From Acidobacteriota bacterium (GTDB taxonomy: Bacteria; Acidobacteriota; UBA4820; DSQY01), in the NCBI GenBank assembly GCA_021778515.1, contig JAJYCJ010000001.1, positions 4,396 through 68,395 on the forward strand: DNA of 64,000 nucleotides. Direction: 5' to 3'. A program made the position numbers and the translations under genes. Shown one piece after another: positions 28,742 to 61,833 of this stretch. The first letter of the stretch is position 1. Every line of letters begins with the position of its first letter. The notes under the pieces were generated by a model. That model did no database searches. It was not told the origin of the DNA and saw only the letters and a list, made by a program, of their open reading frames with translations.

Positions 28742-28750
28742 CCAGACCTC

Positions 28751-39652: not shown

Positions 39653-39663
39653 CGTGGCTCCCG

Positions 39664-40572: not shown

Positions 40573-40578
40573 GGACCG

Positions 40579-40884
40579 CTACCTCAAAGCCACGTCGAGA
40601 AAGGTCAGTCCGAGGAAGATGATGATGATGCACAGCGTCACCATCAGCATGATCCTGAAGAGGGTCTTCTCGTACTTCAGGTGCATGAAGAAGAAGACCA
40701 CGAGAGCCGCCTTGAGCGGGCTGATGATGAAGGCCGCCAAGGAGTTCCATCGCCCCCCGCCCATGTGGAGCAGGGAGATGGAGGAGAGCAGGAGCGTGAG
40801 CCCCACCAGGGCCGCCCACACCAGGGTGTAGGTGGTGTAGCTGACGACGTGGATCTCTTCGGTCGCTTCGTGAGCCACGGCCAT
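40579..40884 (-). CDS. Cytochrome c oxidase subunit IV (bacterial caa3-type small subunit)
   Basis: 101 aa, three predicted TM helices, positioned between subunits III and II. Confidence 0.7.
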   Translation of the reverse strand: MAVAHEATEEIHVVSYTTYTLVWAALVGLTLLLSSISLLHMGGGRWNSLAAFIISPLKAALVVFFFMHLKYEKTLFRIMLMVTLCIIIIFLGLTFLDVALR

Positions 40885-40890
40885 CCCCCC

Positions 40891-41526
40891 TTACGCCGCC
40901 AAATAGAAGAGCGGAAGCAGGAAGATCCAGATGATGTCCACGAGGTGCCAGTAAAGCGCGGCGTTCTCCAGGAAGACGAAGTGCTCCTGGGTGACCTTTC
41001 CGCGCGCCATCAGAATGAGCGCGGCGGTGAGCACGGCGATGCCGGCGATGACGTGCAGGCCGTGCAGTCCCGTCATGACATAGTAGAGCGAGAAGAAGAG
41101 CTGTTCCCCCGGCTTGCCCTGGAGCAGATGGGAATGCGGGAAGTAGCCTTGGCGGATGTGGCCGCTCCACTCCACGGCCTTGACAATCATGAAGGCCACG
41201 CCGGTCAGAATGGTCGTCCCCACGAGCCCCATGGCCAGCTTCCTTCTGCCCCGCTGGAGGGCCGTGATGGAGCTGGCCACGGCGAAGCTGCCCGTGAGCA
41301 GGACCAGCGTGTTGGCCACCCCCAGGATGGCGTCCATGTGGCTGCCGCCCGCGCTGAAGGCTCGCGGATGATCGGCCCTGTACATGGCGTACAGGACGAA
41401 CAGCCCGCCGAAGAGCATGCACTCCGAGAGGAGGAAGAGCCACATGCCGAGCTTGGCGCCCTCGTAGTCCCTGTGTTCCTCGTGGGCGTGTTCGGCCCGC
41501 CCCGCTTCCGCAGCCACGTCGCTCAT
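40891..41526 (-). CDS. ctaE: Cytochrome c oxidase subunit III
   Basis: 211 aa; conserved subunit III helices (GMWLFLLSECMLFGGLF...HGLHVIAG...LYWHLVD). Confidence 0.85.
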   Translation of the reverse strand: MSDVAAEAGRAEHAHEEHRDYEGAKLGMWLFLLSECMLFGGLFVLYAMYRADHPRAFSAGGSHMDAILGVANTLVLLTGSFAVASSITALQRGRRKLAMGLVGTTILTGVAFMIVKAVEWSGHIRQGYFPHSHLLQGKPGEQLFFSLYYVMTGLHGLHVIAGIAVLTAALILMARGKVTQEHFVFLENAALYWHLVDIIWIFLLPLFYLAA

Positions 41527-43154: not shown

Positions 43155-43156
43155 GT

Positions 43157-43990
43157 TCAGGACCTCGCCTCTCCATGCTTGGCCTTGCGGTTGGGGTTCG
43201 TGAACACCAGGAACGCCACGAAAGCGAGCGCTGACAAGATGACCGCCACGCCCGAGAGGGCCATGACCCTCGAAACGAGCACGCTGCCCTTGGGCCGGAT
43301 GCTGAAGCAGGAGAGGAGCTCGCCCACGATCCTGCCGCCCGTCTTCTCCTTGGCCGCGTCGGCGAGGGCCATCTGGAGGGCCGAGGGCACGTAACTGACG
43401 CCGTAGAGGTACTGGACCACCTTGCCCTTCGGGCTGAGCACGATGAGGGTGGCGGGGTGGATGTACATGTCCTCGTCCTTCTGGTAGCTGAAGCCCACCG
43501 CGTCGGTGACCTTGTCGATGTCGGCCTTGTCGCCGGAGAGGAAGAGCCAGTCCTGCGGCTGGATGGGCCTTTTGACGAGGGCCATGTAGTTGCGCTTCTT
43601 GTCCGCCAGGATCTGCGGGGTGTCCGTGGGGTCGAAGCTGATGGAGATGATCTGGTAGTCCTTGCCGGGATCGAGGGGCATCCGGTTCACAACGCCCGCC
43701 ACCCCCTCCAGCAGGCGCGGGCATATGCCGGCGCACCGAGAGTAGAAGAGGGCCAGGACCGTGGGCTTGGTCATGACCTGCCCGAGGGTGACCTCGCGGC
43801 CCTGCGAATCCGTGAACTTGGCGTCCAGGGGAACCTGGGCGCCCAGCTTCTCGGTCACGCCCTCGACGGTGATCTTGCCGGGGGTCTGGGCCATGACCGC
43901 GGCCGCCATCATGAGCCCGAGGCCCGCCGTCCATATCACCCGCAAGGCACCTCGGCCCGAACGCACCAATTTCCGTTCTTCTCTCTTCAT
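43157..43990 (-). CDS. SCO1/SenC family copper chaperone
   Basis: N-terminal TM, thioredoxin-like domain with CxxxC (CAGICP) and the conserved His region; immediately upstream of cox subunit I. Confidence 0.85.
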   Translation of the reverse strand: MKREERKLVRSGRGALRVIWTAGLGLMMAAAVMAQTPGKITVEGVTEKLGAQVPLDAKFTDSQGREVTLGQVMTKPTVLALFYSRCAGICPRLLEGVAGVVNRMPLDPGKDYQIISISFDPTDTPQILADKKRNYMALVKRPIQPQDWLFLSGDKADIDKVTDAVGFSYQKDEDMYIHPATLIVLSPKGKVVQYLYGVSYVPSALQMALADAAKEKTGGRIVGELLSCFSIRPKGSVLVSRVMALSGVAVILSALAFVAFLVFTNPNRKAKHGEARS

Positions 43991-44261
43991 GGTCCCAAAT
44001 CACCCAGGAATCACGCGTACGTCTCGTATATTTGGGGGACGGGCCGCCGCCGCCGGCGCCTCTTCGGGAAGGTCCGTTCTTCCCGCCCTGCCGTCCGATT
44101 CAACTCCCCGCGCCTGCGCTTGCGGGCCCGTTCCACTCCCTCTCCAATGCTTCAGGAGCGGCTCCCTCACCCTCCGCGGGGCTCGCATGGATAGTGAAAC
44201 AGCCGATGAACGAGATTATTCGCCCGCAGGGGGACAAAGGCGATCGCGCGCAGCCCCGCCC

Positions 44262-45194
44262 TCAAGTCCCCTCCCGGCGGGCCTGCGGCGGGGACCCCGC
44301 TCCCGTCGGGCCGGCCAGGCCCGCCAGCTCTTGCTGGAAGAGCTTCCACTGCCGGGCATCGAGCCCCGCCACGCCCGGGTCCAGGCCGTTGTTCGGCGGG
44401 TCCGCCACGGCCACGCGAACGAGGGCATCCAGATCGCTCTGCCAATCGGGGACCTGGGCCAGGACCCGCGCCGTGCGGCCCGGGTCCTTCACGAGCCGCC
44501 TGACGAGCCGCGCCCCCTGGCTGTCGTCTCCGGGAGGAGGCATGGGGATCGCGGGGGGCCGCTTGTAGTCGGCCGCCATGTGCTTCATGACCGTCGGGAC
44601 CGCCACCTTGCTGGGCGTCTCGCTCCCCTTCGAGAGGTTGAACTCCTTGTCCAGCGCCGCGATCTGCTGCGGCGTATCCTGGCCGTGGTCGAAGTGGCCG
44701 AGGGACTGCACGTAGTGGGCGAGAGCGAATCGGTCCATGGGCGTCAGGGTGTCGTAGGAGGCCATGCCCGTCCCCGCCACCCCTTTCGAGAGGGTCCGGT
44801 AGATGTCGGCGATGGTGTAGCCGTTGGTCCAGCCGTTGGGGCTCGTAAAATTGCGCGGCTTCGGATTGAAGGCCACGGCGGCCGGCCCGTTTCCCTGGCC
44901 AGCCGGGCCGTGGCAGGCCACGCAGTTGGCCTGGAAGAGCTTCTCTCCCTGGGCCACCGCCTTGGGCGTGGATTGGAAAGCGTCGTCCAGATCTACCCCA
45001 GGCTTCTGGTTGCCTTTCACGGTGGGAAAGATCGTGGGGTCCGAGGGGACCGCCGTGGCCTCCCTCCACTCCTTCTGCTGCTTGGAGATGAGGCCGCCCT
45101 TGGGCAGGAGCATGAAACCGAGGATCGCATAGAGGCCGGCCAGCACGAGGACCAGCGCTACCACGGAAAGGGCCTGCTGCTGCTTCTTGTTCAT
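44262..45194 (-). CDS. Membrane-anchored monoheme cytochrome c with about 130-aa C-terminal extension
   Basis: Start at MNKKQQQALSVVALVLVLAGLYAILG (TM anchor); class I cytochrome c domain with CVACHG; 16 nt downstream of actF. Confidence 0.75.
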   Translation of the reverse strand: MNKKQQQALSVVALVLVLAGLYAILGFMLLPKGGLISKQQKEWREATAVPSDPTIFPTVKGNQKPGVDLDDAFQSTPKAVAQGEKLFQANCVACHGPAGQGNGPAAVAFNPKPRNFTSPNGWTNGYTIADIYRTLSKGVAGTGMASYDTLTPMDRFALAHYVQSLGHFDHGQDTPQQIAALDKEFNLSKGSETPSKVAVPTVMKHMAADYKRPPAIPMPPPGDDSQGARLVRRLVKDPGRTARVLAQVPDWQSDLDALVRVAVADPPNNGLDPGVAGLDARQWKLFQQELAGLAGPTGAGSPPQARREGT

Positions 45195-45210
45195 CGGTCG
45201 CGCCTTTCGC

Positions 45211-46362
45211 TCAAAGCCTGAATTCCAGGCCCTCTTGCAGGAAGGGGTCGCCCACCGGTGTGTCCTCGCCCTTGGCCATGGCTGCACGGGCGGCGAGCAG
45301 GCCCAGCGGCAGGAAGAGGAGGGCGAAGGAGAGCTCGGGCCACCCCAGCCGGACCTTCGCACCCACCGCCGGGAAGATGAGCCAGTAGAGGTCGATCAGC
45401 ATGAAGGCCAGAACCCAGAGGGAGACCCACCGCAGGCGCTTGGGATTGGTCTTGGCCTTCCGGCTCACGAGAGCGAGGAACGGGACGAAGAAGTGGCCGA
45501 TGCCCAGGATGAGCGACAGCGCCAGCCAGCCCCCGGTGGTCCGCTGCTTGAACCAGAAGACCTCCTCCGGCATGTCCCCGTACCACATGAGCATGTACTG
45601 GGCGAAGGCGATGTAGCCCCAGAAGACCGTGAAGGCGAAGAGAAAGCCGCCCAGGTTGTAGAGATGGTCCTTCGTGATCCCGGGCAGTCGTCCGCGATTG
45701 TAAAGGTACAGCGTGCCCAGCGTGGTGGCGGCGAGTCCCGACAGGAAGGTCCCCGCGAAGAGGTAGACGCCGAAGATGTCGCTGTACCAGACGGGCTCCA
45801 GGCTGGAGATCCAGTCGAAGGCCACCGTGGTCAGCGTGAGGGCGAAGATGGCCAACACCAGGGGCGCGTAGCGCCGGAGGCGAACGGTGATCATGGGGTC
45901 CCTGCTTCGGTCCTGCTCGAAGGAGCGCTTCACCACGAGCCGGTAGGCGAGGAACCAGAGAGCCACGCAGGCCAGGGTCCGAATGATGAAAAACGGCGTA
46001 TTGAGCCATGCCGACTTGAGGACCACCGCCGGCACCGACGCGCCCTCGGGCCTCGCCCACGGATAGAGCACGGGCAGGCACAGGAGGGCAGCCACCACCA
46101 GGGGCGTGACCCACAGGGCCAGGCTGGAGAGGCGTTCGGGCACGCGCCTGAGAGGCACGCTCCAGACGGACTGGACCTGGTGCTCCAGGGCCACGATGAA
46201 GAGGCAGCCCAGGCCCACGGCGATGCCGAAGACCATCCAGACGAGCCAGTTGGCCCAGAAGCGCGCCGGCCCCTCGACGAAGTAGGTGGCCGCCGCTCCC
46301 GACAGGCCCACGGCGGAAAGAAGGAGGAGGTTTCTGACCATGGTCCCGCTTCCGCTGCTCAT
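45211..46362 (-). CDS. actF: Alternative Complex III subunit ActF (NrfD-like polytopic membrane subunit)
   Basis: 383 aa, about 10 TM helices, homologous in architecture to ActC; ATGA overlap with the actDE stop; the ORF finder fused it with upstream sequence. Confidence 0.8.
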   Translation of the reverse strand: MSSGSGTMVRNLLLLSAVGLSGAAATYFVEGPARFWANWLVWMVFGIAVGLGCLFIVALEHQVQSVWSVPLRRVPERLSSLALWVTPLVVAALLCLPVLYPWARPEGASVPAVVLKSAWLNTPFFIIRTLACVALWFLAYRLVVKRSFEQDRSRDPMITVRLRRYAPLVLAIFALTLTTVAFDWISSLEPVWYSDIFGVYLFAGTFLSGLAATTLGTLYLYNRGRLPGITKDHLYNLGGFLFAFTVFWGYIAFAQYMLMWYGDMPEEVFWFKQRTTGGWLALSLILGIGHFFVPFLALVSRKAKTNPKRLRWVSLWVLAFMLIDLYWLIFPAVGAKVRLGWPELSFALLFLPLGLLAARAAMAKGEDTPVGDPFLQEGLEFRL

Positions 46363-47489
46363 TGCACGTCCTCCGGCTCTGCGTGCTGGGAGCGCTGCAA
46401 GGCCCTGACGTAATCCACGATGGCCCACCGGTCGTTGGCCGACAGGTCCGCGGCGTAGCTGGGCATGGCTCCCTTTCCCGCGGCAATGACGTAGTAGATG
46501 TAGCCGTCGGGCGCCTCGCGGTAGGTGGAGGCCTGGAGGTCGGCCGGCTTGGCCGTGTAGGCCGAGGTCAGCCACGGCTTGCCCGTCCCCAGGCGGTCGT
46601 GGCAGACGGCGCAGTGGTTGTTGAACAGGTCGCGCCCGGCCTGAAGGACGGCCGGCGTGACCGGGAGGGGGTTGATCAGCTCCTTCCCCGCCTCCTCCGG
46701 GCTCTTGGCCAGCAGCGGCATGTACCCTCGGGCCACGGTCCCGACGGGGGGGAGCTGCATGCCGTGGCCGTCCGCGAAGAAGGAGTCGGCCTTCTGCGCG
46801 TCGAGCCTGGGCTGCACCTCCATGTGGACCATGGGCGGAAGGGTCGGGTAGATCTTGATGGCCCAGGCGGTGCCGAAGCCCGTCACCACGCAGGCGGCGG
46901 TGATGCCGGAGAGGGTCTTGAGCCACCAGCCCAGGCCGGGAGGCGTCGAATCGGGAGCCGCCAGCACCTCCACCTCGGAGCCGCCCGTCTCCAGGAGCGC
47001 CGCGCTCGCCGCCTCCACGTCCAGCACCCCTGCCTCCGGCATGATGAGGAGGCCGAACCTGTCCTTGGTGGTCCCGCGGATGGCCTTGGAACCGAGGATG
47101 GGACTGCCGAAGAAGGGCAGCTTGTTGAAGAGGAAGAGCATGGCCAGCCCGGCGGTGAAGGTGGCGAAGAGCACCGTCACCTCGAACATGACCGGGACGA
47201 AGGCCTGCCAGGAGTTGAAGGGCTTGCCGCCGATCACCAGCGGGTAGTCCACGGCGCTCGTCCACCATTCGAAGAGGAAGCCGCTCACGGCCCCCAGAAC
47301 GGCCATGATGAAGACCAGCGTGCCCAGCCGCGATTTCTTCAGGCCCAGCGCCGCTTCCATCCCGTGGACGGGGAAAGGCGTGTAGGCCTCCAGGCTGGAG
47401 AAACCCCTGGCCTTGATCCCGGGGATCGCATCCAGGAGGGCCTGCGCGGTGGGATAGAGGGCGAGGACTCCGAAGGGCGCCTCAGGCAT
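46359..47489 (-). CDS. Alternative Complex III ActD-ActE fusion (DUF3341 membrane subunit plus monoheme cytochrome c)
   Basis: N-terminal ActD-like domain with TM helices (about 170 aa), and a C-terminal class I cytochrome c with CAVCHD...MPSY; a single 376-aa ORF. Confidence 0.8.
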   Translation of the reverse strand: MPEAPFGVLALYPTAQALLDAIPGIKARGFSSLEAYTPFPVHGMEAALGLKKSRLGTLVFIMAVLGAVSGFLFEWWTSAVDYPLVIGGKPFNSWQAFVPVMFEVTVLFATFTAGLAMLFLFNKLPFFGSPILGSKAIRGTTKDRFGLLIMPEAGVLDVEAASAALLETGGSEVEVLAAPDSTPPGLGWWLKTLSGITAACVVTGFGTAWAIKIYPTLPPMVHMEVQPRLDAQKADSFFADGHGMQLPPVGTVARGYMPLLAKSPEEAGKELINPLPVTPAVLQAGRDLFNNHCAVCHDRLGTGKPWLTSAYTAKPADLQASTYREAPDGYIYYVIAAGKGAMPSYAADLSANDRWAIVDYVRALQRSQHAEPEDVQ

Positions 47490-48870
47490 GGCCCACCTCC
47501 GCTGCGTGTTCGGGCTGGGCGTGGGGCACGTCCATCTTCACCTCGCTCGTGGCGATGACCGGTAGCACGCGTGCGAACAGCAGCACCAGCGTGAAGAAGA
47601 GACCGAAGGAGCCCAGCAGGATTCCGAAGTCCACCAGGGTGGGGATGAACACCCCCCACGACGAGGGCAGGAAGCTGCGGTGGAGTGAGAGGACGATGAT
47701 GGTGTACCGCTCGAACCACATGCCCACCGTGACGCACGACGAGACGAACAACATCACGGGGAAGGAGCGCCTGAACCGGGGCACCCAGAGGAGCTGGGGA
47801 ATGATCACGTTGCAGGTGATGGTGATCCATCCCGCCCACCACTGGTCGCCGAAGACGTAGTTGTAGAAGGTGTACCGGATGTAGGTGTTGGAGCTGTACC
47901 AGGCCGTGAAGCCCTCCATCAGGTAGGAGTAGCCCATCAGGCAGGACATGGTGAGGATCATCTTGTTCATCATGTCCATGTGGGTCATGGTGATGAGGTT
48001 CTCCATGTGCATGGTCTTGCGCACCACGGAGAGCACCAGCACCACCATGGCGAAGCCCGCGAAGATGGCCCCCGCCACGAAGTAGGGCGGGAAGATGGTC
48101 ATGTGCCAGCCCGGCACCAGGGAGACGGCGAAGTCGAAGGAGACCACGCTGTGCACGCTCAGCACGAGGCCGGTGGCGAGGCCCGCCAGCAGGAGGTAGG
48201 CCCTCTCGTAGTGGAGCCAATTCCTCGCGGAGCCCACCCAACCGAGGCTGAGGACCCGATAGATGCCCTTCCGGAGCCTGCTCGTGGTCCGCTCGCGCAT
48301 GGAGGCCAGATCGGGCATGAGCCCCAGGTACCAGAAGAGCAGCGACACGCTGAAGTAGGTGCTGACGGCGAAGACGTCCCAGACCAGCGGGGAGCGGAAG
48401 TTGATCCAGAGGTCCCGCACGTTGGGATAGGGAAACAGCCAGTAGCCGAACCAGGGGCGGCCCACGTGGATCAGGGGGAAGATGCCCGCGCAGCAGAGGG
48501 CGAAGATGGTCATGGCCTCGGCCGCCCTGGATATGGCGTTGCGCCAGCGCTTCCTGAACATGAAGAGGATGGCTGAGATGAGGGTCCCGGCGTGGCCGAT
48601 CCCCACCCAGAAGACGAAGTTGATGATGGGGAAGCCCCATGCCACGGGGACGTTGTTGCCCAGCGTCCCGATGCCCTCGTAAACCAGATAGCCGATGCAC
48701 CCGAATCCCATGAGCATGATGAGGCTCGTGATGGTGATGGCGATGAACCATCCCCGGCCCGGCTTGGTCTCCGGCCACGCCAGCACCTGATCATCGAGGC
48801 TGCCGACGGTGACCGGCCCCTCCATCAGCGGCTGGTGGCGGATCGCTTCGGGAAGCAGAGCCTCAGGCAT
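47482..48870 (-). CDS. actC: Alternative Complex III subunit ActC (NrfD/PsrC-like quinol-interacting membrane subunit)
   Basis: 462 aa, about 10 TM helices, typical ActC N-terminus; 8-nt overlap with the actB stop. Confidence 0.85.
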   Translation of the reverse strand: MPEALLPEAIRHQPLMEGPVTVGSLDDQVLAWPETKPGRGWFIAITITSLIMLMGFGCIGYLVYEGIGTLGNNVPVAWGFPIINFVFWVGIGHAGTLISAILFMFRKRWRNAISRAAEAMTIFALCCAGIFPLIHVGRPWFGYWLFPYPNVRDLWINFRSPLVWDVFAVSTYFSVSLLFWYLGLMPDLASMRERTTSRLRKGIYRVLSLGWVGSARNWLHYERAYLLLAGLATGLVLSVHSVVSFDFAVSLVPGWHMTIFPPYFVAGAIFAGFAMVVLVLSVVRKTMHMENLITMTHMDMMNKMILTMSCLMGYSYLMEGFTAWYSSNTYIRYTFYNYVFGDQWWAGWITITCNVIIPQLLWVPRFRRSFPVMLFVSSCVTVGMWFERYTIIVLSLHRSFLPSSWGVFIPTLVDFGILLGSFGLFFTLVLLFARVLPVIATSEVKMDVPHAQPEHAAEVGHA

Positions 48871-51747
48871 TCTTGTCCTCCCCTGGGACGGCGGGGTTCT
48901 TGAGCTCGGCCATGTAGGTGATGGCCGGCCGCGTGCCCAGCTCCTCCAGAACCTTGAAGCGGCGGTCGCTGCGGGAGAGGTGGGCCACCCGGCTGTCCTT
49001 GTCGTTGAGGTCGCCGAAGACGATGGCGCTCGCGGGACAGGCCGCCTGGCAGGCCGGCACGATCTCCCCGTCGCGGAGCGGGCGGTGCTCGTCCTGGGCC
49101 ACGCGCCTGCCGTTGACGATGCGCTGCACGCAGAAGGTGCACTTCTCCATGACGCCCCGCGGCCTCACCGTGACCTCGGGATTGAAGGCCAGGTCCAGCG
49201 GGTCCTTGATGAAGCTCGTGTAGTCCAGGAAGTTGAAGCGGCGCACCTTGTAGGGGCAGTTGTTGGAGCAGTACCTCGTGCCGACGCAGCGGTTGTACAC
49301 CATCTGGTTCAGGCCGTCGGGGCTGTGGGTCGTGGCCGCCACGGGACAGACGTTCTCGCAGGGGGCGTCGTCGCACTGCTGGCAGAGCATGGGCTGGTGG
49401 ACCACCTTCGGGTTGCCCGCGTCCCCTTCGTAGTACTTGTCGATCCGGATCCACTGCATCTCCCGCCCCCTCGACACCTGCTCGGGGCCCACCACGGGGA
49501 TGTTGTTCTCGGACTGGCAGGCGATGACGCAGCCGTTGCACCCCACGCAAGCCGACATGTCGATGGCCATGCCCCACTTCTCTCCCGTGTAGGGGTGGCC
49601 CTTGTAGAGGGTCACCTCCTGCTCGCCCTGGGGGTGTGCCGCCTCCTTCTTGTACTCGTCGAGGTCCCACAGCCTGACGATGTCGCGGCCCTCCAGGGAG
49701 AAGTGTTTTTGAGTCCTGCACAGCTCGCGATGGCCTCTGGTCGGGATCACGGCCGCATCCGTGCGAAGGAACGGGGAGCCCCCGGAGGCCATGAGGGGGA
49801 AGGCGTTGACGCCGATTCCCGATGCGACCCTGCCCTCCGTGCGCCCGTACCCCAGGGGAAGGGTGAGGACTCCTTGGGCCTGGCCCGGCTGGACCAGCGC
49901 GGGTACCTCCAGGCTCTTGCCGCCCACCTCGATGCGCAGCAGATCTCCGTCCTGCACGCTCAGCCTCTGGGCATCGGCCGCCGAGATCAGCGCGGCGCAG
50001 CCCCAGGTGAGGTCGGTGACGGGTTCGGGCAGCTCCTGGAGCCAGCCGATGTTGGCGTAGCGTCCATCCCACAGCTTCAGGTCGCGCACGAGCACGAGGT
50101 CCATGCCTTGGCCCGCGGGAACCTTCGCCCTGTCAATCGCTTCGACCAGGGCCGCGCTCTTGGGCTGGCGGGGCGCCCTGGGCTCCACATCCAGCCTGAG
50201 CACGCCATCGTGCACCGCCCCGTTCCAGTAGGCCTCGAAGGGCACTGGCGAGGCGGCCGGGTAGACCTCCCTCCGCCAGCGCCCCATGACGTAGAGCCTG
50301 TAGTCCGTCTCCACGGGTGCGCCTATGGCCTTGGCCCACCGCAGCAGGACCTCCTCCGCCTGACGGGTCTGGTAGAGCGGGCGGATGAGGGGCTGCTGGA
50401 GGCTCAGCAGATCCGTTCCCGCCTCGAAGTCCCCCCAGGACTCCATCCAGTGATTCACGGGAAGGACCACCTGGCAGGTCTTGGCCGTCTCGTCTTCCCG
50501 GAGGCCCAGCCGCACCCTGAGGGGCACGCGGGAGAGACCCTGGACGAAGGAGCCCGCGTCGGGCTGGTCGTAGGCCGGGTTCGCACCCCATACAATGGCC
50601 GCCGCGTACACACCGGAGGCGAGGTCCTTGGCGAGTACGGCCATGTCCTCAGGGGCCGCGAGCTGCACGGGCGCAGGCGCGAAGCCGGCGTCCACCGTGC
50701 TGCCCTCGGCGCCCAGCATGGCGTTGAGCAGCGAGACGGCGGCGTGCGCCTCGTAGGGAAGGCTCGGCCCGGCTGCCACGAGGGCCGCAGGACCCGCCTT
50801 GGCGAGGTCGTCCACCATGACCCCGAGGAGATGGAGGTCCAGCCCCTGCGCCCTGGCCACCTCCTTGAGCGCGAAGGGCGCCAGGGTGCTCGACGCCAAT
50901 CCGTCCGGAAGGGCCAGATGGTGGCGCTCGTGGAGCTCCAGCGCCAGGGCGAAAGCCACCGCGGCCGCCGCGGAGGGACGCATGGGAAGGCGGTGGTCCG
51001 CCTTCGTACCCGTGAGCGTCAGCGTGCCCTCCAAGGCGTAGAGCCGGTTCATCGGCTCCGTCGGCGAGGAGAGCCGCCGGTTCGCGGCGAAGCCCCGGAT
51101 GGCCGGGACGGCCTGGTCCATCGTGCCCAGCAGGTCCGCCTCCAGCGCCACGATCACCTTGGCCTTTTCCAGGTGGTAACGCGGGCAGAGGGCCTCGCCG
51201 AACACGGCCTGGGCCGCCGCGCGCCCCGCATGGTCCGCCGCGGGCTCCCACGCGACGTGCCGAAGCGTGGGCAGCACCGATTTCAGGTCGTTCAGGACCG
51301 CCCGCTGGCTCGGGGAGATCACCGCGGGCGTCACCAGGAGCAAGGCCTTGCCGCCCGAGGCGGCCGCCTTCAGGGCCGCAACCACTCGGCTGTCCACCGC
51401 GGCCCAGTCGGCGGGGTGTCCGTCCATCACGGGCTGCCTGAGCCGGTCCGGGTCGTAGAGGCCGATCACCTCCGCCATGATCCGCGGCGAGGTCTTGCCC
51501 TCGAAGAGGGGGTGCTCGTCGTTGCCGTCGATGTGGATGGGCCTGCCCTCGCGGGTCTTGACCAGCACGCCGTAGGGCACGAGCCCCTCCTGGACGGTGC
51601 TGGCGTAGTAGTTGGCCACGCCGGGGATCACCTCCGAAGGCTTCTTGGTGTAGGGAACGATGGTGTCGCCTTCGGGCGCTTGACAGGCGGCCGTGGCGGC
51701 GAGGGCCGCCGAGGCCCCCATGAGGCCCAGGAAGCGCCGCCTGGCCA
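48863..51747 (-). CDS. actB: Alternative Complex III subunit ActB (fused molybdopterin-oxidoreductase-like B1 and 4Fe-4S ferredoxin B2 domains), Tat-exported
   Basis: Tat motif MARRRFLGLMGASAALAATAA with RBS AGGGAG 5 nt upstream of ATG 51747; C-terminal Cys clusters (CVGCNGCVIACQSENN, CQQCDDAPC, CPYKVRRFN); the ORF finder offers an alternative GTG start at 51889 that adds 47 aa. Confidence 0.85.
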
Positions 51748-51881
51748 TGGGCTCCCTGGGCGGCTCCATGGGAGTGAGACCGTTCGGGCTCTCACTGCCA
51801 TCCCATCCGCCCGGGGTCACCGCCGCGGCCTTTGGCGGGAGGACCTTCCAGAAGGCCCTCCGCTTTTCGTCCCTCTCCTCG

Positions 51882-52091
51882 TTAGCCACGGCGTTTCACC
51901 GAGTGGAGCGGGCCGGCCACCCTTCTCGATGGCAGCGGGCCCCTCTGAGCGGCTTCCTCGCCGGCACCGGCCGGTGCGGCCGGGCGGGGGTACTCCCCAC
52001 CCCGCCCCCAGAACCTGCGCCCCAGGGCGAGGTTCCCCAGGAAGGCCGCGAGCATGCCCGCCAGGACCTTTCGACGACTCGTACCGGTCAT
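51882..52091 (-). CDS. Small hypothetical membrane/Tat-like protein (69 aa) between actA and actB
   Basis: ATG 33 nt after the actA stop with RBS GGAGAG; MTGTSRRKVLAGMLAAFLGNLALG hydrophobic N-terminus with an SRRxxL Tat-like motif; high GC3; the upstream part of the listed ORF 51882..52712 is the alternate frame of actA. Confidence 0.3.
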   Translation of the reverse strand: MTGTSRRKVLAGMLAAFLGNLALGRRFWGRGGEYPRPAAPAGAGEEAAQRGPLPSRRVAGPLHSVKRRG

Positions 52092-52123
52092 GGACACTCT
52101 CCTCTGCATCCTTGCCTCGGCTC

Positions 52124-52687
52124 TCATCGGTGACAGGCGTTGCAGTTGGTGGGTCCGGCCTGGATCGGCGAGCCCGGCGGGAGATAGCGCCTCGGGTCCC
52201 GGTGGCAGGCCAGGCAGTGGCCCATCCGCATGTTCATGACGCGCCTCACCCGGTCCATGTCCTGCACGTCGCCGTGGCAGCTCTGGCATGCGATGCCTGA
52301 GTTCACGTGCGGCCGGTGGTCGAAATAGACGTGGTCGGGGAGCTCGTAGATCCGCTTCCAGAGCAGCGGCTTGTTCGATTCGTAGATGGCCGTGAGCTCT
52401 TTGATGTACACGTTGTTGGTCTTGGCATAGCGATGACAGTTCATGCAGGTCTGGACCGCCGGAACGGTGGCGTGCCGAGAGCGCGTCGCGTTCGTATGGC
52501 AGTAGAGGCAGGGGATCCTCATCTGTCCGGCGTGAAGGCGGTGAGAGAAGGGGATGGGCTGTTTCGGGGCATAGCCAAGGACGAATCGGTCCGGCTCCGC
52601 GACCCATCCCACCGTGATCATGGTGATGAGGACGGCCGTTGCGCCGATGGGAATCGCGAACCGGAACAGACGGTCTAGCGGATGCAT
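52124..52687 (-). CDS. actA: Alternative Complex III subunit ActA (pentaheme cytochrome c)
   Basis: Five CxxCH motifs (CLYCH, CMNCH, CQSCH, CLACH, CNACH); N-terminal TM; start at MHPLDRLF with RBS GGGAGGAGG. Confidence 0.85.
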   Translation of the reverse strand: MHPLDRLFRFAIPIGATAVLITMITVGWVAEPDRFVLGYAPKQPIPFSHRLHAGQMRIPCLYCHTNATRSRHATVPAVQTCMNCHRYAKTNNVYIKELTAIYESNKPLLWKRIYELPDHVYFDHRPHVNSGIACQSCHGDVQDMDRVRRVMNMRMGHCLACHRDPRRYLPPGSPIQAGPTNCNACHR

Positions 52688-52960
52688 AAACCTCCTCCCA
52701 ATGGGGCCGCACAATTCTCTCTGCCTGGTTCCATCACGGCCTACTATCCCACAAGACTATCGTGAAATGGAATGTGAACGTGCCTCATCCATCCAAATCC
52801 TCTCGTGTAACCGGGCCCCGTTTTCGATTATTCCCCGCCGCCGCGGCCGTCCGTGAGGGGCCGATAGGGCCACGCGGTCCGTCGGCCACGGCAAGAAGAA
52901 AGCGCGCCTCGCGCGCGGGGTGGCTCGGCGTGCGGCCTGAGCCGGCGCCGGGGCCCGTCG

Positions 52961-54256
52961 TTACGGATAGAGCCGGTAGAGCATGCGCGGATAGGGAATG
53001 GTCTCCCGGACGTGGTTCAGGCCACAGAGCCAGGCCACCGTCCGCTCGAGGCCGATTCCGAAACCGCCGTGCTTCACGGTTCCGTACCTGCGGATGTCCA
53101 GGTACCACTGGAAGGCCTCTACCGGGAGGCCGTGCTCCTGGATGCGCGAGAGGAGCAGGTCGTGGTCGTGGATGCGCTCCGAGCCGCCGACGATCTCGCC
53201 GTAGCCCTCCGGGGCGAGCACGTCCACGCAGAGGGCGAGGCTCGGGTCTTCGGGATCGGGCTCCATGTAGAAGGCCTTCACCGACGCCGGGTAGCGGTGG
53301 ACCATGATGGGCCGGTCGTACTGCTGGGTGAGGATGGTCTCGTCGTCGCCGCCGAAGTCGTCGCCGTACTTCAGGTCGCTGCCCAGCTCGTGGAGCTGCC
53401 GCACGGCGTCCTTGTACTGCACGCGAGGGAAGGGCTTCTGCACCTTCTCCAGCTTGCTTGTGTCCCGCTCCAGGATCTTCAACTCCTCGGGGCAGCGGTC
53501 CAGGATCCGCGAGACGACGCTGACGAGGAAGTCCTCCGAAAGGGCCATCACGTCGTCGAGGCCCGCGAAGGCCATCTCCGGTTCGAGCATCCAGAATTCC
53601 ATGAGGTGCCGGCGCGTCTTGCTCTTCTCGGCCCGGAAGGTGGGGCCGAAACAGTAGACCTTCCCCAGCGCCATGCAGGCGGGCTCGAGGTAGAGCTGGC
53701 CGGACTGGCTGAGGTAGGCCTTCTCTCCGAAGTAGTCGGTCTCGAAGAGCGTGGTCGTCCCCTCGCAGGCCGCCGGCGTCAGGATGGGGCTGTCGATGAG
53801 GGTGAAGCCGCTCTCGTAGAAGTAGTCCCGGAAGGCCTGTTCGATCTCGGAGCGCACCCGCAGGATGGCCACCTGCCGGGAGGAGCGCAGCCACAGGTGC
53901 CGGTTCTCCATGAGGAAGCCCGTGCCGTGCTCCTTCTTGCCGATGGGGTACTCCTCGGCCATGTGGTGCAGAACCAGGCCGGAGAGGGAGAGCTCCACCC
54001 CGCCTGGCGCCCGCTGGTCGATCCGCACCGTTCCCTCCACCGTGACGGAGGACTCCAGGGTCGCGCGGTCCATGAGCTCGAAGACCTCGGGCGGAACATC
54101 CCGGACGAAGGCCACGCACTGGAGGTAGCCCGAGCCGTCCCGCAGGATGAGGAACCGGACCTTGCCGGAGGAGCGCTTGTTGTAGACCCAGCCGTCGAGG
54201 GTCACCTTCTCCCCGTCGTGGGCCGCCAGTTCCTTCACGGTGAGCTTGTGCAGCAT
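52961..54256 (-). CDS. asnS: Class IIb aminoacyl-tRNA synthetase, asparagine--tRNA ligase type
   Basis: 431 aa; N-terminal OB anticodon-binding domain; class II motifs ([33 protein letters not shown]-terminus); start at [11 protein letters not shown] with RBS AGGAG; archaeal-type AspRS cannot be fully excluded. Confidence 0.8.
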
Positions 54257-54409: not shown

Positions 54410-55690
54410 TCAATTCAGCCGCTTCTGCTCCCTGCGGAACTGGAACTCGCACTGGCCGGCCCTGATGGTCGACCCGGCCTTGAGCTCCTTGAGAGTGACG
54501 CGCTCGCCGTCCAGGAAGGTTCCGTTGGTGGACTGGAGGTCGGCGAGGTAGTAGGTGCCCTCCTTGGGGACGATCCGGAAGTGCTGTCCCGAGAGGGTCT
54601 GGTCGGCGATGCAGAGCGTGTTCACCTTGTCGCGTCCCACGGAGACCACCTGGTCAGGCGGGAGCTGGAAGACGCGCGGGGGATTTTTGCCGCGATGCAG
54701 AACCAGCACCGGGACCTCGTCCAGGACGAGGGTGTGCTCCAGGGCGTCCGAGCTGGGCCCCTTCTGGAGCAGGGCCGGATCGAGTTCGGGCACGGACTCG
54801 GCGGCCACGGCCTGCGTCGCCGCGCCCAGGTTGGTGATGGAGAGCTTCTTGGCCAGGCACACGGGACATTCGGCCTCCCAGAGATTGAGCGGGCGTCCGC
54901 ACTGCTCGCACGCCCGCGCCTCCTGGACCTTCGTCCGCTTCAACAGGACCACGACCCCGTAGGCCACGACGGCCAGCCCCGCGGCCAGCGCCAGGAAAAG
55001 GACCCACACCCATGCCCTGGAGGCCGGCGGCGGAGGAGGGGGGGGCTGGGGTTTGGCTTGAGGCGGCGCCGCCGGTTGGAGCTGCGGCGGAGCGGGCGGG
55101 CGCATGGGCGCCAGGGCGAGGCTGACCTTGGACCAATCGCTTGCGACGTCCCCGGGCGTCACGCCCGAGAAGGGGCCGGCGTATTCCCCCCCCGTGAGCG
55201 CGGCGATGCGCCTGAGCACCTTCAGGTCCTCCGCGCCCATCCCCACGGCAACCACGGCCACGTGCGCCCGAGCGGCGCGCGAGGCCGCATCCTCCAGGGT
55301 CACCGCCGAGTTTTCGTCCTTCCCGTCCGTGAAGAGGAGGACCACGCCCTCGCTGTTCTGCCCTTCCACGGCCTTGACCGCGGAAAAGAGGCAATCGTAG
55401 AGCAGGGTGTAGCGTCCCCCCTGTTCCAGCTTACCGATGGCCGATTTCAGGGCCTCGGGGTCGCGGGTGAAGGCCTGAACCTCCACGGGTGCGTCGTTGA
55501 ACCCGTAGATGGCCACGGGCCCCTTCTCGGCCAGCGTGGGGGCGAGTCCCTCCAGCATGGACTTGGCCGCCTCGAACTGCGAGGGCGGTATGGACCGGCT
55601 GGTGTCCACCAGCACGGCCGTGGGCGAAGCCGACAGGACGACCGGCGCGAGGAGCACCGTCAGGACGATGGCAGCGGCGAATCGGCGCAT
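54410..55690 (-). CDS. Transmembrane signalling protein: signal peptide-vWA domain-Pro-rich linker-TM-zinc ribbon-FHA domain
   Basis: Start at MRRFAAAIVLTVLLAPVVLSASP with RBS GGAGGAGG; vWA/MIDAS-like motif (VLVDTSRS...LLFTDGKDENS); PPPPPPP linker; TM WVWVLFLALAAGLAVVAYGVVVLL; CEQCGRPLN...CPVC; FHA (VSVGRD..NTLCIAD.TLSGQHFRIV...YYLADLQSTNGTFLDGERV). Confidence 0.75.
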   Translation of the reverse strand: MRRFAAAIVLTVLLAPVVLSASPTAVLVDTSRSIPPSQFEAAKSMLEGLAPTLAEKGPVAIYGFNDAPVEVQAFTRDPEALKSAIGKLEQGGRYTLLYDCLFSAVKAVEGQNSEGVVLLFTDGKDENSAVTLEDAASRAARAHVAVVAVGMGAEDLKVLRRIAALTGGEYAGPFSGVTPGDVASDWSKVSLALAPMRPPAPPQLQPAAPPQAKPQPPPPPPPASRAWVWVLFLALAAGLAVVAYGVVVLLKRTKVQEARACEQCGRPLNLWEAECPVCLAKKLSITNLGAATQAVAAESVPELDPALLQKGPSSDALEHTLVLDEVPVLVLHRGKNPPRVFQLPPDQVVSVGRDKVNTLCIADQTLSGQHFRIVPKEGTYYLADLQSTNGTFLDGERVTLKELKAGSTIRAGQCEFQFRREQKRLN

Positions 55691-55853: not shown

Positions 55854-57299
55854 ATGCTGAATCTGGAACCCAAGAAGGTGTGGGAACACTTCGAGAAGCT
55901 CAGCGCCATTCCTCGTCCCTCCAAGCACGAGAAGGCCGCCGGCGATTACGTGGTTTCGGTGGCGAAGGCCCGCGGAATGGAGTGGGAGCGGGACGAGGTC
56001 GGCAACATCGTGATCCGGGTCCCCGCCACGAAGGGCCGCGAGAAGGCCGCCATCACGATCCTTCAGGGCCACCTCGACATGGTGTGCGAGAAGAACTCGG
56101 GCACCGTGCACGATTTCTTGAAGGATCCCATCCGCCTGCGAGTCGAGGGAAAGGTCGTCAAGGCCGATGGCACGACCCTCGGGGCCGATAACGGAATCGG
56201 CGTGGCCATGAGCCTGGCCCTCCTGGATGAGCCCCAATCGGTCCACGGCCCCCTGGAACTGCTCTTCACGATCGACGAGGAGACGGGCCTGAACGGCGCC
56301 AACAACCTCAAGCCGGGCTTCGTGAAGGGGCTGCGGATGTTGAACCTCGACACGGAGGAGGACGCCCAGCTCTACGTCGGCTGCGCCGGGGGCATCGACA
56401 CCCTCATGGACCTGCGGGTGGGGCGCCGGCGCCAGAAGAGCCGCCAGCCGGCCTTCAGGGTCTCTGTCACCGGTCTGCGCGGAGGCCATTCGGGCGGCGA
56501 CATCCACGAGGGCCGCGGCAACGCGAACCGGATCCTCGTCCGCCTCCTCCAGGAGATGGACCGCCTGTCCCTCGGCTACGAGCTGGTGGCCTTCCAGGGC
56601 GGCTCCAAGCGCAACGCCATACCCCGGGAGGCCTTCGCGCTCCTGCACCTGAAGAAGGCGGTCGTGGCGGAGGCCTTCGACTCAGTGAAAGCGTTCCAGG
56701 ACATGATCCGAGAGGAGCTCAGGGGGCTGGAGGACGGCGTGACGGTCACCCTGGAGGAGGCCCGAAGCGACATGGCTCCCCTCTCCCCCGGCAGCCAGAA
56801 GAAGACCGTGCGGCTTTTGGGAGCCGTGCCCCACGGCCTCATCGCCTACAGCCGTGAGATCCACGGCCTCGTGGAGACCTCCACCAATTTCGCCATCGTG
56901 ACCACGACCCAGGGCAAGGTCCAGGTGGCGACCTCCCAGCGCTCCAGCGTGGCCTCGCAGCTCGCCTGGGCGGCCCAGTGGGTGGCCAATGTGGGACTCC
57001 TGGCGGGTGCCCGGATCGTCCAGTCCGACGGCTATCCGGGATGGAAGCCCGACCTGGACTCCCCCATCCTGAAGGCCGCGCAGAAGACCTTCCTGCGGGT
57101 CACCGGCGAGGAGCCTCAGCCCAAGGCGATCCACGCCGGGCTTGAGTGCGGCATCATCGGCGCCAAGTACCCCGGCATGGATATGGTCTCCCTCGGACCG
57201 GAAATCCGCAACGCGCACTCGCCCGACGAGGAGGTCCACATCGACTCGGTCAAGAGGACCTATTCCGTCCTCCTGGAGCTGCTGAAGGACCTGGCCTAG
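55854..57299 (+). CDS. pepD: Aminoacyl-histidine dipeptidase (Xaa-His dipeptidase, M20C family)
   Basis: 481 aa; MLNLEPKKVWEHFEKLSAIPRPSKHEK typical PepD N-terminus; metal ligands in M20 motifs (GHLDMV, ADNGIG, TIDEETG); RBS AAGGAG. Confidence 0.85.
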   Translation: MLNLEPKKVWEHFEKLSAIPRPSKHEKAAGDYVVSVAKARGMEWERDEVGNIVIRVPATKGREKAAITILQGHLDMVCEKNSGTVHDFLKDPIRLRVEGKVVKADGTTLGADNGIGVAMSLALLDEPQSVHGPLELLFTIDEETGLNGANNLKPGFVKGLRMLNLDTEEDAQLYVGCAGGIDTLMDLRVGRRRQKSRQPAFRVSVTGLRGGHSGGDIHEGRGNANRILVRLLQEMDRLSLGYELVAFQGGSKRNAIPREAFALLHLKKAVVAEAFDSVKAFQDMIREELRGLEDGVTVTLEEARSDMAPLSPGSQKKTVRLLGAVPHGLIAYSREIHGLVETSTNFAIVTTTQGKVQVATSQRSSVASQLAWAAQWVANVGLLAGARIVQSDGYPGWKPDLDSPILKAAQKTFLRVTGEEPQPKAIHAGLECGIIGAKYPGMDMVSLGPEIRNAHSPDEEVHIDSVKRTYSVLLELLKDLA

Positions 57300-60459: not shown

Positions 60460-61833
60460 ATGGACGATTCGGGGGTTCTGCTATTTCGCTGTACCTCGTG
60501 TGGAAGGGAATACCAGCTGGCCCTGGCCAAGGTGCCTCCCGGCGGGGCCTCCGGCCCATGCAAGACCTGCGGACAGATCATCGGGGTCCATCCCGACGGC
60601 TCCCTCGCGGGGGCACGGCGGATCTCCACGCCGGCCGCCCCTGAACAGCACGCCGGCGCAGGCCCGCCAACCGCCCGGCCGGCGGTCGATCCCGGGGCGG
60701 CCCCCTGCCCCCCGGCCTGGGAGATCCAGACCGAAGGTCAGAGCCTGGGACCTTTCGGGCCCGACGAGATGCGCGAGCTGATCGCCTCCGGGCGGCTCTC
60801 CAAGGAGCGCTTGGTCCGTTCGCCGGGGGGGGAGTGGGCCCCCGCCGGCTCCCTGCCTGCCCTGGCGGGGTTCTTTCCCGCCGAGGCGCCGCTGCAGCCC
60901 GAGGCGGACGAGGGGCCCATCGGGAGCGAGGGGGGTTGTTATGCCCATCCCTCGGCCCCGCCTGCCTTTCAATGCTCGCAGTGCATGCGCTACCTGTGTG
61001 AATCTTGCGTGGTTCAGAAGGCCCTGACCAATGTGAACCAACCGGTCAAGGTCTGCAGAGCCTGCGGGGGGACGGTCACGGCCCTTCTGCGGAAACCCCG
61101 ATGGACTCCGTTCTACAGGGACATGCCCAGGGTCCTCACGGCCCCGCTGCGAGGCACCGACGGGCTTCTGGCGCTCGGTGTGATGGCCCTGCTCCAGGTG
61201 CTCAAGATCCCCTGCCGTATGGCGGGCATGGCCGGCCTGGCTGGGGTCCTCATCCTCACCGTCTTTCAAACGGCCTTTTACCTTCACCTGATCCGGGAGG
61301 TGGCGAACGGTTCCTACGACTTCCCGGAGTGGCCGGAGATGAGCCAGTTCCTGGACATGTTTTTCTCGTTCCTGAAGGTCCTCTTCGTGACCATCTACTC
61401 CCTGGTGCCAGCCTTCTGCCTCGTCCTGGTGCCCGGAGCCAGCGCCATGAATCTCCTGCTGGGGCCGCGGGGTATGGGACACGGGGCCGTGGCGGCTCCC
61501 GCCCTTGTCCTCGCCGGCGTCGTGATGCTCTGCTACGCCTTCTACCTGCCCATCTGCATCGCCATCGTGGCCGTCTTCGAGACGGTCCTGCCCGCCCTCA
61601 ATCCCGTCCTGATTGTCAGAATTATCGCCAGGATCGGGATGCCCTACCTGGCCGCCGTGGCCCTTTTCATCTCCCTCATGGTGATCGCCCGGGGCGTCAT
61701 AGCGGCGCTGGGACACCTCCCCATGGCCGGAGCGGTGAGCGAGGCCGTCCTCACGGTCTACGGAGAGCTCGTGAGCGCCTACATCCTGGGCAGGGTCATC
61801 TACGAAAACGAGGAGAGCATCGCCTGGCGGTGA
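60460..61833 (+). CDS. Multi-domain membrane protein: N-terminal zinc ribbon, GYF-like (DUF4339) domain, B-box-like Cys cluster, about 7-TM C-terminal domain
   Basis: CTSCGREYQ...CKTCGQ; GYF-like WEIQTEGQSLGPFGPDEMRELIASGRLSKERLVRSPGGEWAP; CSQCMRYLCESC...CRACGG; then hydrophobic helices to the C-terminus. Confidence 0.7.
   Translation: MDDSGVLLFRCTSCGREYQLALAKVPPGGASGPCKTCGQIIGVHPDGSLAGARRISTPAAPEQHAGAGPPTARPAVDPGAAPCPPAWEIQTEGQSLGPFGPDEMRELIASGRLSKERLVRSPGGEWAPAGSLPALAGFFPAEAPLQPEADEGPIGSEGGCYAHPSAPPAFQCSQCMRYLCESCVVQKALTNVNQPVKVCRACGGTVTALLRKPRWTPFYRDMPRVLTAPLRGTDGLLALGVMALLQVLKIPCRMAGMAGLAGVLILTVFQTAFYLHLIREVANGSYDFPEWPEMSQFLDMFFSFLKVLFVTIYSLVPAFCLVLVPGASAMNLLLGPRGMGHGAVAAPALVLAGVVMLCYAFYLPICIAIVAVFETVLPALNPVLIVRIIARIGMPYLAAVALFISLMVIARGVIAALGHLPMAGAVSEAVLTVYGELVSAYILGRVIYENEESIAWR

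Follow-up and report, generated by a model that had tools for sequence, protein, structure and literature searches.

Gene and Domain Architecture

The gene analyzed here lies on the minus strand of a 64-kb stretch of Acidobacteriota DNA (contig JAJYCJ010000001.1; the whole stretch is referred to as the window), at positions 54410–55690, and comprises 426 codons and a stop codon. Its predicted product is a single-pass membrane protein composed of a signal-peptide-like segment, a VWA domain, a proline-rich spacer, a transmembrane helix, a putative zinc ribbon, and an FHA domain, referred to below as the VWA-FHA protein. The open reading frame (ORF) is a genuine gene with a 426-residue product: translation starts with an ATG at 55690, with the ribosome-binding site GGGGAGGAGG just 5′ of the start, and stops at 54410–54412. 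The mechanically called ORF reaches 55924, and its upstream portion overlaps the start of the divergent pepD gene. The GC content at third codon positions (0.86) is typical for the genes of the window, which has an overall GC content of ~67%, and the identical protein has been called on 11 public contigs, including those of the metagenome-assembled genomes (MAGs) GCA_027388675.1 and GCA_027388695.1. A regulatory RNA or attenuator at the gene was rejected, as Rfam gave no credible match around it at E ≤ 0.1, returning a single chance snoRNA match within the coding sequence (20.7 bits against 42). A first-pass annotation, made from the sequence, had proposed the domain order signal peptide, vWA, linker, transmembrane helix, zinc ribbon, FHA; this order is seen in the 426-residue translation, and the motifs that it quoted (VLVDTSRS, TDG, the proline-rich linker, one transmembrane segment, four cysteines, and GRD...SGQHF...TNGTF) are all found where it had placed them.

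The VWA domain spans residues 24–192 (positions 55115–55621) and matches Pfam family PF00092 over residues 26–164 with 53.3 bits (cut-off 23.8); VWA_2 also passes its threshold (39 bits, cut-off 27). In an AlphaFold2 model of the protein built with a 34-sequence alignment, residues 24–192 have a predicted local distance difference test (pLDDT) score of >90 and adopt the α/β, Rossmann-like VWA fold. The metal-ion-dependent adhesion site (MIDAS) is complete and is composed of D29-x-S31-x-S33 within VLVDTSRS, T95, and D122 within FTDG, all of which are invariant in an unfiltered alignment of 34 family sequences. In a larger alignment of 170 sequences (25–95% identity), whose selection filter required D29, S31, and S33 and partly fixed the residues of the FHA pocket as well, T95 is conserved at 98% and D122 at 100%. 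The domain also carries the family motif DG-x-DE-x-S and four further invariant acidic residues, D66, D99, D125, and D134. Structural comparisons with the PDB using Foldseek match it to the VWA domains of CMG2 and TEM8, with target-normalized TM-scores of 0.74–0.80, and to BatB (~0.66), and integrin I-domains are matched as well. The acidobacterial VWFA model TIGR03436 gives a partial match (model positions 66–220 of 324) with 52.3 bits versus 81.25, and the domain is probably a related VWA subtype that falls short of membership.

The FHA domain at the opposite end of the protein spans residues 323–424 (54419–54724) and matches PF00498 over residues 349–412 with 60.1 bits (cut-off 20.7). The residues that line the phosphothreonine (pThr) pocket, G352, R353, S367, H370, and N389, are present (GRD...SGQHF...STNGTF), are invariant in the 34 sequences, and line up in a PDB sequence alignment with the GR...SxxH...NG motif of GarA and OdhI. 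They conform to the conserved FHA pattern of Gly-Arg in the β3–β4 loop, Ser-x-x-His in the β4–β5 loop, and Asn in the β6–β7 loop. In the 170-sequence alignment, D384 and G412 are conserved at 100%. The whole-protein AlphaFold2 model folds residues 323–424 into a β-sandwich, in keeping with the eleven-strand FHA fold, with pLDDT values of ~86–94, and a second model of residues 249–426, built with 60 sequences, gives 93–97 for the domain. Foldseek matches it to the FHA domains of CT664, FhaA, GarA, and OdhI with target-normalized TM-scores of 0.87–0.92, the FhaA domain in complex with the intracellular domain of MviN (Rv3910) scoring 0.92. EmbR is also matched, and the FHA domains of Rv1747 and ArnA (5a8i) score lower, at ~0.7. 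By sequence, the best PDB match is an FHA domain of Rv1747 (E = 3e-6). The invariance of the ligand-contacting residues in both the VWA and FHA domains argues that both still bind ligands in the canonical way, so that each is predicted to be ligand-competent, the one through a metal ion and the other through pThr.

The protein has exactly two hydrophobic segments, at residues 4–22 and 230–248. The first falls in the signal-peptide-like segment MRRFAAAIVLTVLLAPVVLSA (residues 1–21; 55628–55690), in which MRR, with its two Arg residues, precedes a hydropathy peak of 2.34 at residues 4–22. The pattern of M-(R/K)-(R/K), a hydrophobic core, and small AxA-like residues before the first VWA strand recurs throughout the 34-sequence alignment, and residues 1–21 look like a signal peptide of the Sec type or, at a minimum, an N-in signal anchor. 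The second segment is the hydrophobic core of the transmembrane helix (residues 226–253; 54932–55015), which AlphaFold2 also models as a helix at 226–253, between low-confidence linkers at 193–225 and 283–317. This helix has a hydropathy of 2.64; a single Lys/Arg is found among the ten residues that precede it, and three (KRTK) follow directly. Most of the 34 members likewise carry 2–5 Lys/Arg residues after the helix versus mostly 0–1 (at most 3) before it. Together, the two hydrophobic segments and the positive-inside bias place the VWA domain in the periplasm and the four-cysteine segment and FHA domain in the cytoplasm, a topology derived from hydropathy and charge rules that agrees, across most of the 34 members, with the extracytoplasmic vWA and cytoplasmic FHA domains of the first-pass annotation. 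The cytoplasm is the reducing side of the membrane, and a zinc-thiolate site and a pThr reader would make chemical sense there.

Two further elements border the transmembrane helix. On the predicted periplasmic side, the spacer (residues 193–225; 55016–55114) is 33 residues long, is 48% Pro, and is modeled with pLDDT values of 50–66, falling below 50 at residues 207–215. Across the family, the spacer has a median length of 37 residues (10–90% range, 30–55) and a median Pro fraction of 0.26. On the predicted cytoplasmic side lies a juxtamembrane C-x2-C-x10-C-x2-C motif (residues 261–278; 54857–54910), CEQCGRPLNLWEAECPVC, with C261, C264, C275, and C278 as its four cysteines. These cysteines are invariant in a 60-sequence alignment of closer members, and the motif is found in 123 of 168 family members (73%) and is absent from a distant subgroup. 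AlphaFold2 models the segment as two short hairpins with a pLDDT of only ~70. Whereas the domain searches bore out the expected VWA and FHA domains, the zinc ribbon family DZR (PF12773) reaches 15.1 bits against a Pfam cut-off of 27.3 (E = 0.026), and the putative zinc ribbon is therefore assigned from its motif and conservation and not from a hidden Markov model.

A mostly disordered cytoplasmic linker (residues 279–322; 54725–54856) connects the four-cysteine motif to the FHA domain. Its pLDDT falls below 50 at residues 283–303 and 312–317, it carries a semi-conserved PE-L-DP-x-L motif, and it ends near Thr320 (codon 54731–54733, minus strand). This residue was not part of the selection filter and is conserved at 100% in the 170 sequences, which equals the conservation of the metal-binding and pThr-pocket residues. 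Thr320 sits three residues before strand β1 of the FHA domain in the context (E/D)-x-T-hydrophobic-V-L, with Leu at +3, and may be phosphorylated by a kinase or act as a structural cap. In the PDB alignment, GarA seemingly lacks a Thr at the equivalent place.

Family and Genomic Setting

The VWA-FHA protein is one of a large group of similarly organized proteins. A word-indexed search returned 71 full-length homologues of 385–460 residues and 30–95% identity, all with Pfam matches to VWA and FHA, and an exhaustive profile search of 1.84 billion representatives returned 1986 proteins at E ≤ 1e-30. The order MIDAS, one transmembrane segment, FHA is found in 99 of 113 representatives (370–560 residues, among the best 150 at 50% identity), and a second profile search yielded >300 clusters at 90% identity. 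Retention of the VWA–transmembrane–FHA arrangement, with an optional zinc ribbon, in 99 of the 113 representatives and across >300 clusters argues that it is selected as a unit. The named sources are all Acidobacteriota MAGs and belong to Thermoanaerobaculia (some labeled “Aminicenantes”), Vicinamibacteria, and Holophagae; for the distant representatives, the clusters supply few names, and the profile search adds only the labels Vicinamibacteria and Acidobacteria.

The names given to members at source are generic or inconsistent and include “FHA domain-containing protein”, “hypothetical protein”, YegL, ChlD, and UPF0148 Zn finger. For four members (P0225, P0237, P0298, and P0328), the automatic JGI names clash outright, reading YegL, UPF0148 Zn finger, type VI secretion system (T6SS) component, and Mg-chelatase ChlD; such noise in the annotation could lead searches based on context astray. 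The VWA-FHA protein scores below the cut-off of every NCBIfam model. The best match, FhaB/FipA Rv0019c (NF049868), scores 62.2 bits versus 125 and covers model positions 67–156 only. Identity with FhaB/FipA was rejected, given a score below the cut-off that is confined to the FHA part and the absence of the fhaA-fhaB-pstP-rodA-pbpA-pknAB context; OdhI, GltG, EspA, and the other NCBIfam equivalogs were likewise rejected, their matches being restricted to the FHA part and far below cut-off. A literature search found no paper on the family. The family is undescribed, and the VWA-FHA protein belongs to no named equivalog family.

The neighbors named in the first-pass annotation are confirmed. Directly downstream on the same strand lies asnS (52961–54256), a conserved neighbor with no evident functional link to the VWA-FHA gene, and pepD (55854–57299) is divergent on the plus strand. 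A sigma-70-like promoter of its own, TTGCCC-17-TATAAT, precedes asnS at 54312–54284; there is no terminator between the two genes, and one follows asnS at ~52902–52917. The wider setting was compared by clustering the ORFs of 81 loci together with those of the window. Within the subgroup of at least 42% identity, asnS is the next gene downstream, in the same orientation, in 18 of the 21 species-level genomes (gaps of 9–359 nt; L008–L029), and the upstream neighbor varies among pepD, alr, and hypE. In a Thermoanaerobaculia subgroup (~35% identity; L030, L031, L033, and L037), a class II ribonucleotide reductase gene, nrdJ, is directly upstream on the same strand. In the Vicinamibacteria-type loci (L009, L049, L050, L062, and L064), ntrY/ntrX are divergent upstream and nrdR is convergent downstream, nrdR being annotated directly in L009 and assigned by ORF cluster in the other four; an LPG-synthase-like gene is a further lineage-specific neighbor alongside ntrY/ntrX and nrdR. 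The position beside ribonucleotide-reduction genes in two distant subgroups may be a remnant of ancestral synteny. The search for conserved neighbors thus revealed synteny, but of lineage-specific housekeeping genes, and none of the widely shared neighbors was accepted as a partner.

The first-pass annotation had also noted that no kinase or phosphatase gene is adjacent, which can be extended to the whole window: among the genes scanned, no Hanks kinase, PP2C phosphatase, MoxR, T6SS, or type III secretion system (T3SS) gene is found. In the flanks of the related loci, four “DGMGG” PP2C-like matches fall on a DnaB homologue in two loci (L008 and L023) or on unannotated small ORFs, and were rejected as phosphatase candidates. 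An apparent 547-residue homologue beside a kinase gene (L078) was rejected as well, because it consists of two genes, one for a VWA protein and one for an ABC transporter that resembles Rv1747 in carrying two FHA domains. In this Hydrogenedentota MAG (L078:9695–15392), the VWA gene, the ABC transporter gene with its two N-terminal FHA domains, and a Hanks-type kinase gene lie consecutively on a single strand. Here the same domains are spread over separate genes, and the kinase is among them.

The window itself is core chromosome, with clusters for alternative complex III and cytochrome c oxidase, cytochrome bd subunit I, glyQS, asnS, glnA, rtcB, and peptidases. The one obvious signaling protein in its annotated parts is a large PAS-PAS-GGDEF-EAL protein of cyclic-di-GMP turnover (7577–10108, plus strand). 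About 5 kb from the VWA-FHA gene, at 60460–61833 on the plus strand, lies a gene for a 457-residue protein with a GYF_2 domain and a DUF4013 region; bacterial GYF membrane proteins often come paired with zinc ribbons (PMC11135422). The respiratory genes are clustered on the minus strand at 38660–52714. They comprise the act cluster of alternative complex III (a multiheme cytochrome, ActB, an NrfD-like protein, ActD, and cytochrome c subunits), the cytochrome c oxidase cluster (a COX2–cytochrome c fusion, COX4, COX3, and COX1), and a gene for a UbiA-family prenyltransferase that is possibly a heme O synthase. Cytochrome bd subunit I lies with an Rrf2 regulator at 27389–29260. The longest ORF for COX1 (41523–44003, minus strand) encodes 826 residues, of which the COX1 domain begins only at residue 319, reflecting either a long N-terminal extension or fusion or a true start further downstream. 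A 1163-residue ORF at 48809–52300 on the plus strand is antisense to the gene for the 1008-residue ActB-like molybdopterin/Fe-S subunit (48863–51889, minus strand) and is not a gene but a shadow ORF of the kind common in high-GC DNA.

A Possible Trans-Envelope Adaptor

A VWA domain that binds a ligand outside the cytoplasm and an FHA domain that binds a pThr protein inside it would together constitute a trans-envelope adaptor. The reading favored here, to which we assign a probability of roughly 55%, is that the VWA-FHA protein is a type I inner-membrane protein of this kind, coupling a periplasmic MIDAS ligand to cytoplasmic Ser/Thr-phosphorylation signaling. Export, with cleavage of the signal peptide or anchoring by it, would place the MIDAS-bearing VWA domain in the periplasm, where the proline-rich spacer of ~35 residues would fix its distance from the membrane. 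There the MIDAS metal ion would bind an envelope protein through an acidic residue, or else some other carboxylate-bearing ligand. In the cytoplasm, the FHA domain would dock on a protein that has been Thr-phosphorylated by a Ser/Thr kinase of the Hanks type whose gene lies elsewhere in the genome, and the adaptor would thereby couple the phosphorylation state of its cytoplasmic partner with the periplasmic binding event, in the outside-in or the inside-out direction. By analogy to GltJ and ZitP (PMC11135422), the putative zinc ribbon is probably a second protein-contact surface or a surface for self-association; as it is below the Pfam cut-off and missing in ~27% of the family, it would not be essential to the core mechanism. 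Of the interpretation offered by the first-pass annotation, the architecture and topology are supported, and the part assigned to the adaptor in a Ser/Thr-phosphorylation pathway, like the signaling role as a whole, is one that we infer from these features. The gene context supplies no partner.

Several observations weigh against this reading. The window contains no kinase, no PP2C phosphatase, and no other FHA partner. A motif scan of the ±10-kb flanks of ~75 related loci located only two kinase genes (L061 and L078), a scarcity that leaves nothing to be gained from guilt by association, and the conserved neighbors are housekeeping genes that differ by lineage (asnS; nrdJ; nrdR with ntrYX). 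The topology comes entirely from hydropathy and charge rules, the zinc ribbon scores below its Pfam threshold and is lacking in more than a quarter of the family, and no family member has been studied, all of them being from uncultured organisms.

The same evidence can be arranged into narrower or different explanations. The protein might be a specific regulator of cell-envelope growth or division similar to FhaB/FipA or FhaA, a narrower version of the trans-envelope adaptor in which the FHA domain docks on a phosphorylated division or peptidoglycan-synthesis protein and the VWA domain touches the periplasmic wall-synthesis machinery. The NCBIfam match to FhaB/FipA in the FHA part and the FhaA–MviN structural match are consistent with such a role, and so are the core-genome housekeeping setting (asnS, alr, dnaB, and nrdJ, as opposed to accessory islands) and the fairly constant length of the spacer, as expected for reaching a fixed layer of the envelope. 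However, the FhaB score is far under its cut-off and confined to the FHA domain, FhaB and FhaA have no VWA domain, and ftsZ, ftsQ, murJ, rodA, pbpA, pknA/B, and pstP are adjacent in no lineage, which makes this role possible but unlikely. It is rather improbable that the FHA domain is instead a phospho-independent module of the YscD/PrgH type and the protein a structural part of a trans-envelope machine. The layout of a cytoplasmic FHA fold, one transmembrane segment, and a periplasmic domain does resemble that of YscD, and Yop-YscD_cpl (PF16697) scores above its Pfam cut-off over residues 333–421 (48.1 bits versus 33.2), but this match overlaps the stronger FHA match. In addition, R353, S367, H370, and N389 are invariant, and to our knowledge an invariant pThr pocket is not a feature of YscD-type domains. 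The periplasmic part is a VWA domain, T3SS genes are absent, and secretion, pilus, and motility genes are not consistently adjacent; the pilMNO–secretin genes near one homologue (L008) are lineage-specific and 3–10 kb away.

Three further explanations receive still less weight. A reversed topology, or a location of both domains in the cytoplasm, would make the protein a fused form, tethered to the membrane, of the repressor pair ArnA/ArnB or of the TerY-type vWA-kinase-phosphatase modules, the FHA domain reading a phosphorylated site on its own or a neighboring VWA domain. The precedents are that vWA, zinc finger, and FHA modules cooperate in the Sulfolobus cytoplasm (PMC5007285) and are operon-linked in Deinococcus, and the ArnA structure 5a8i is among the fold matches. 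The flanking of the VWA domain by two hydrophobic segments, the positive charges that most of the 34 members carry at the extreme N terminus and behind the second segment, and the resemblance of the N-terminal segment to a cleavable signal peptide make a cytoplasmic location very doubtful. Equally hard to credit is a VWA domain that senses divalent cations (Mg2+, Ca2+, or Mn2+) in place of a protein, with metal occupancy controlling clustering or conformation and hence FHA recruitment. The complete, invariant MIDAS would suit a cation sensor, and D66, D99, D125, and D134 could form added metal sites; however, in characterized VWA domains the metal of the MIDAS forms a bridge to a carboxylate of the ligand and is not known to act as the signal itself, and the structure and context of the VWA-FHA protein lend a cation sensor no support. 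A part in conflict, defense, or secretion, whether in a vWA-MoxR ternary system, as a TagH/Fha accessory of a T6SS, or as an Esr-like threat sensor, is largely refuted by context. Combinations of vWA, FHA, and kinase do occur in such systems (PMC7159879, PMC13622651), and one JGI member name reads “predicted component of type VI protein secretion system”. Nevertheless, PADLOC gave 0 matches, the setting is stable core genome, and genes for MoxR, T6SS, Esx, and effectors are absent from the window genes scanned and are not conserved in the annotated related loci. Membership in the TagH type, which the first-pass annotation had named as an example of a known family, fails as well, as TIGR03354 scores 34.3 bits versus 120.25 in a match confined to the FHA part, and T6SS genes are missing from the surroundings.

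The invariant Thr320 suggests one more elaboration of the trans-envelope adaptor, in the form of a self-contained switch similar to an integrin, which is speculative and on balance improbable. An orphan Hanks kinase would phosphorylate Thr320, the FHA domain of a neighboring molecule would bind this residue in trans, and receptors would cluster with the help of the zinc ribbon. In the inside-out direction, clustering might alter the avidity or conformation of the periplasmic MIDAS VWA domain; in the outside-in direction, ligand-driven clustering might drive the formation of an FHA–pThr lattice. If true, this would be a bacterial counterpart of integrin-type bidirectional signaling, conserved across the Acidobacteriota classes in which the family was found.

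The interest of the trans-envelope adaptor lies partly in its host phylum. Acidobacteriota are among the most abundant soil phyla and are rich in Hanks-type kinases. Bacterial Ser/Thr-phosphorylation signaling is known mainly from Actinobacteria, Firmicutes, Myxococcus, and T6SS regulation, with very little described for Acidobacteriota. The VWA–transmembrane–FHA family would provide a handle, conserved family-wide, on an envelope-to-kinase pathway, and naming its two ligands would reveal that pathway.

Comparison with Known Systems

The overall design of the VWA-FHA protein is reminiscent of CMG2, TEM8, and the integrin I-domain proteins, which combine a signal peptide, an extracellular MIDAS VWA domain, one transmembrane segment, and a cytoplasmic signaling tail. 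These proteins are eukaryotic and share 16–19% identity with it, and their tails contain neither an FHA domain nor a zinc ribbon; the resemblance is one of design, and nothing beyond the common VWA fold points to shared ancestry. In bacteria, the Myxococcus proteins GltJ and GltG belong to a machine that spans the envelope and reside in the inner membrane. The FHA domain of GltG is cytoplasmic, and the NCBIfam model of GltG matches the VWA-FHA protein weakly and in that domain only (24 bits versus 650). The periplasmic parts of GltJ and GltG are TonB-C-like and not VWA domains. The two differ further from the VWA-FHA protein in carrying their domains on separate proteins, and Agl-Glt genes are absent here. 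In both GltJ and the Caulobacter protein ZitP, which is likewise in the inner membrane, the cytoplasmic zinc ribbon is a protein-binding switch module (PMC11135422).

Among FHA proteins, the best matches in sequence and structure are the mycobacterial FhaB/FipA (Rv0019c), FhaA (Rv0020c), and Rv1747, which are membrane-associated readers of the marks left by Hanks kinases. In Rv1747, PknF is reported to phosphorylate Thr residues of the linker that separates the FHA domains (PMC8339232). Unlike the VWA-FHA protein, these mycobacterial proteins have no VWA domain or zinc ribbon, and they are encoded beside kinase/phosphatase genes or fused to an ABC transporter. In function, the nearest precedent is PpkA of Pseudomonas aeruginosa, from the H1-T6SS threonine-phosphorylation pathway. 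A transmembrane segment joins its cytoplasmic Ser/Thr kinase to an extracytoplasmic VWA sensor domain, and its signal passes to Fha1, an FHA protein (PMC1262709, PMC3224232). Both PpkA and the VWA-FHA protein are single-pass proteins in which an extracytoplasmic VWA domain is tied across the membrane to a cytoplasmic domain of Ser/Thr phosphorylation. The order of domains is opposite, however, PpkA having an N-terminal kinase and a C-terminal VWA domain, and PpkA bears the writer of the mark and not the reader. In addition, ppkA lies in a T6SS cluster with pppA, tagR, and fha1, whereas the VWA-FHA gene has no such neighbors and its product has the additional zinc ribbon. A Pfam search of the VWA-FHA protein for Pkinase at E up to 1 gave no match; the resemblance is functional only, and the protein is not a PpkA-type receptor kinase. 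The trans-envelope adaptor involves no new principle: FHA readers anchored in the membrane are already known, and so are periplasmic VWA sensors that are coupled to Ser/Thr signaling.

The same three modules cooperate in Sulfolobus acidocaldarius, where ArnA, composed of a zinc finger and an FHA domain, binds phosphorylated ArnB, a vWA protein (PMC5007285), and the FHA structure of ArnA (5a8i) is one of the fold matches. In that pair, the modules are divided between two soluble proteins of the cytoplasm, which act on archaellum gene transcription; the VWA-FHA protein unites them in a single chain whose VWA and FHA domains are predicted to be separated by the membrane, so that the FHA domain could not read the VWA domain of its own chain. 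In Deinococcus, genes for VWA, FHA, kinase, and PP2C proteins are linked at DRA0331–0334. In these systems, and also in vWA-MoxR and Esr systems, the vWA protein resides in the cytoplasm, unlike the predicted periplasmic VWA domain of the VWA-FHA protein. The recurrence of linkage among vWA, zinc finger, FHA, and kinase/phosphatase modules elsewhere supports a functional connection between them, and once the ligands of the VWA-FHA family are known, it would become clear whether a single mechanism underlies the linkage of VWA, zinc finger, FHA, and kinase in ArnA/ArnB, PpkA, and DRA0331–0334.

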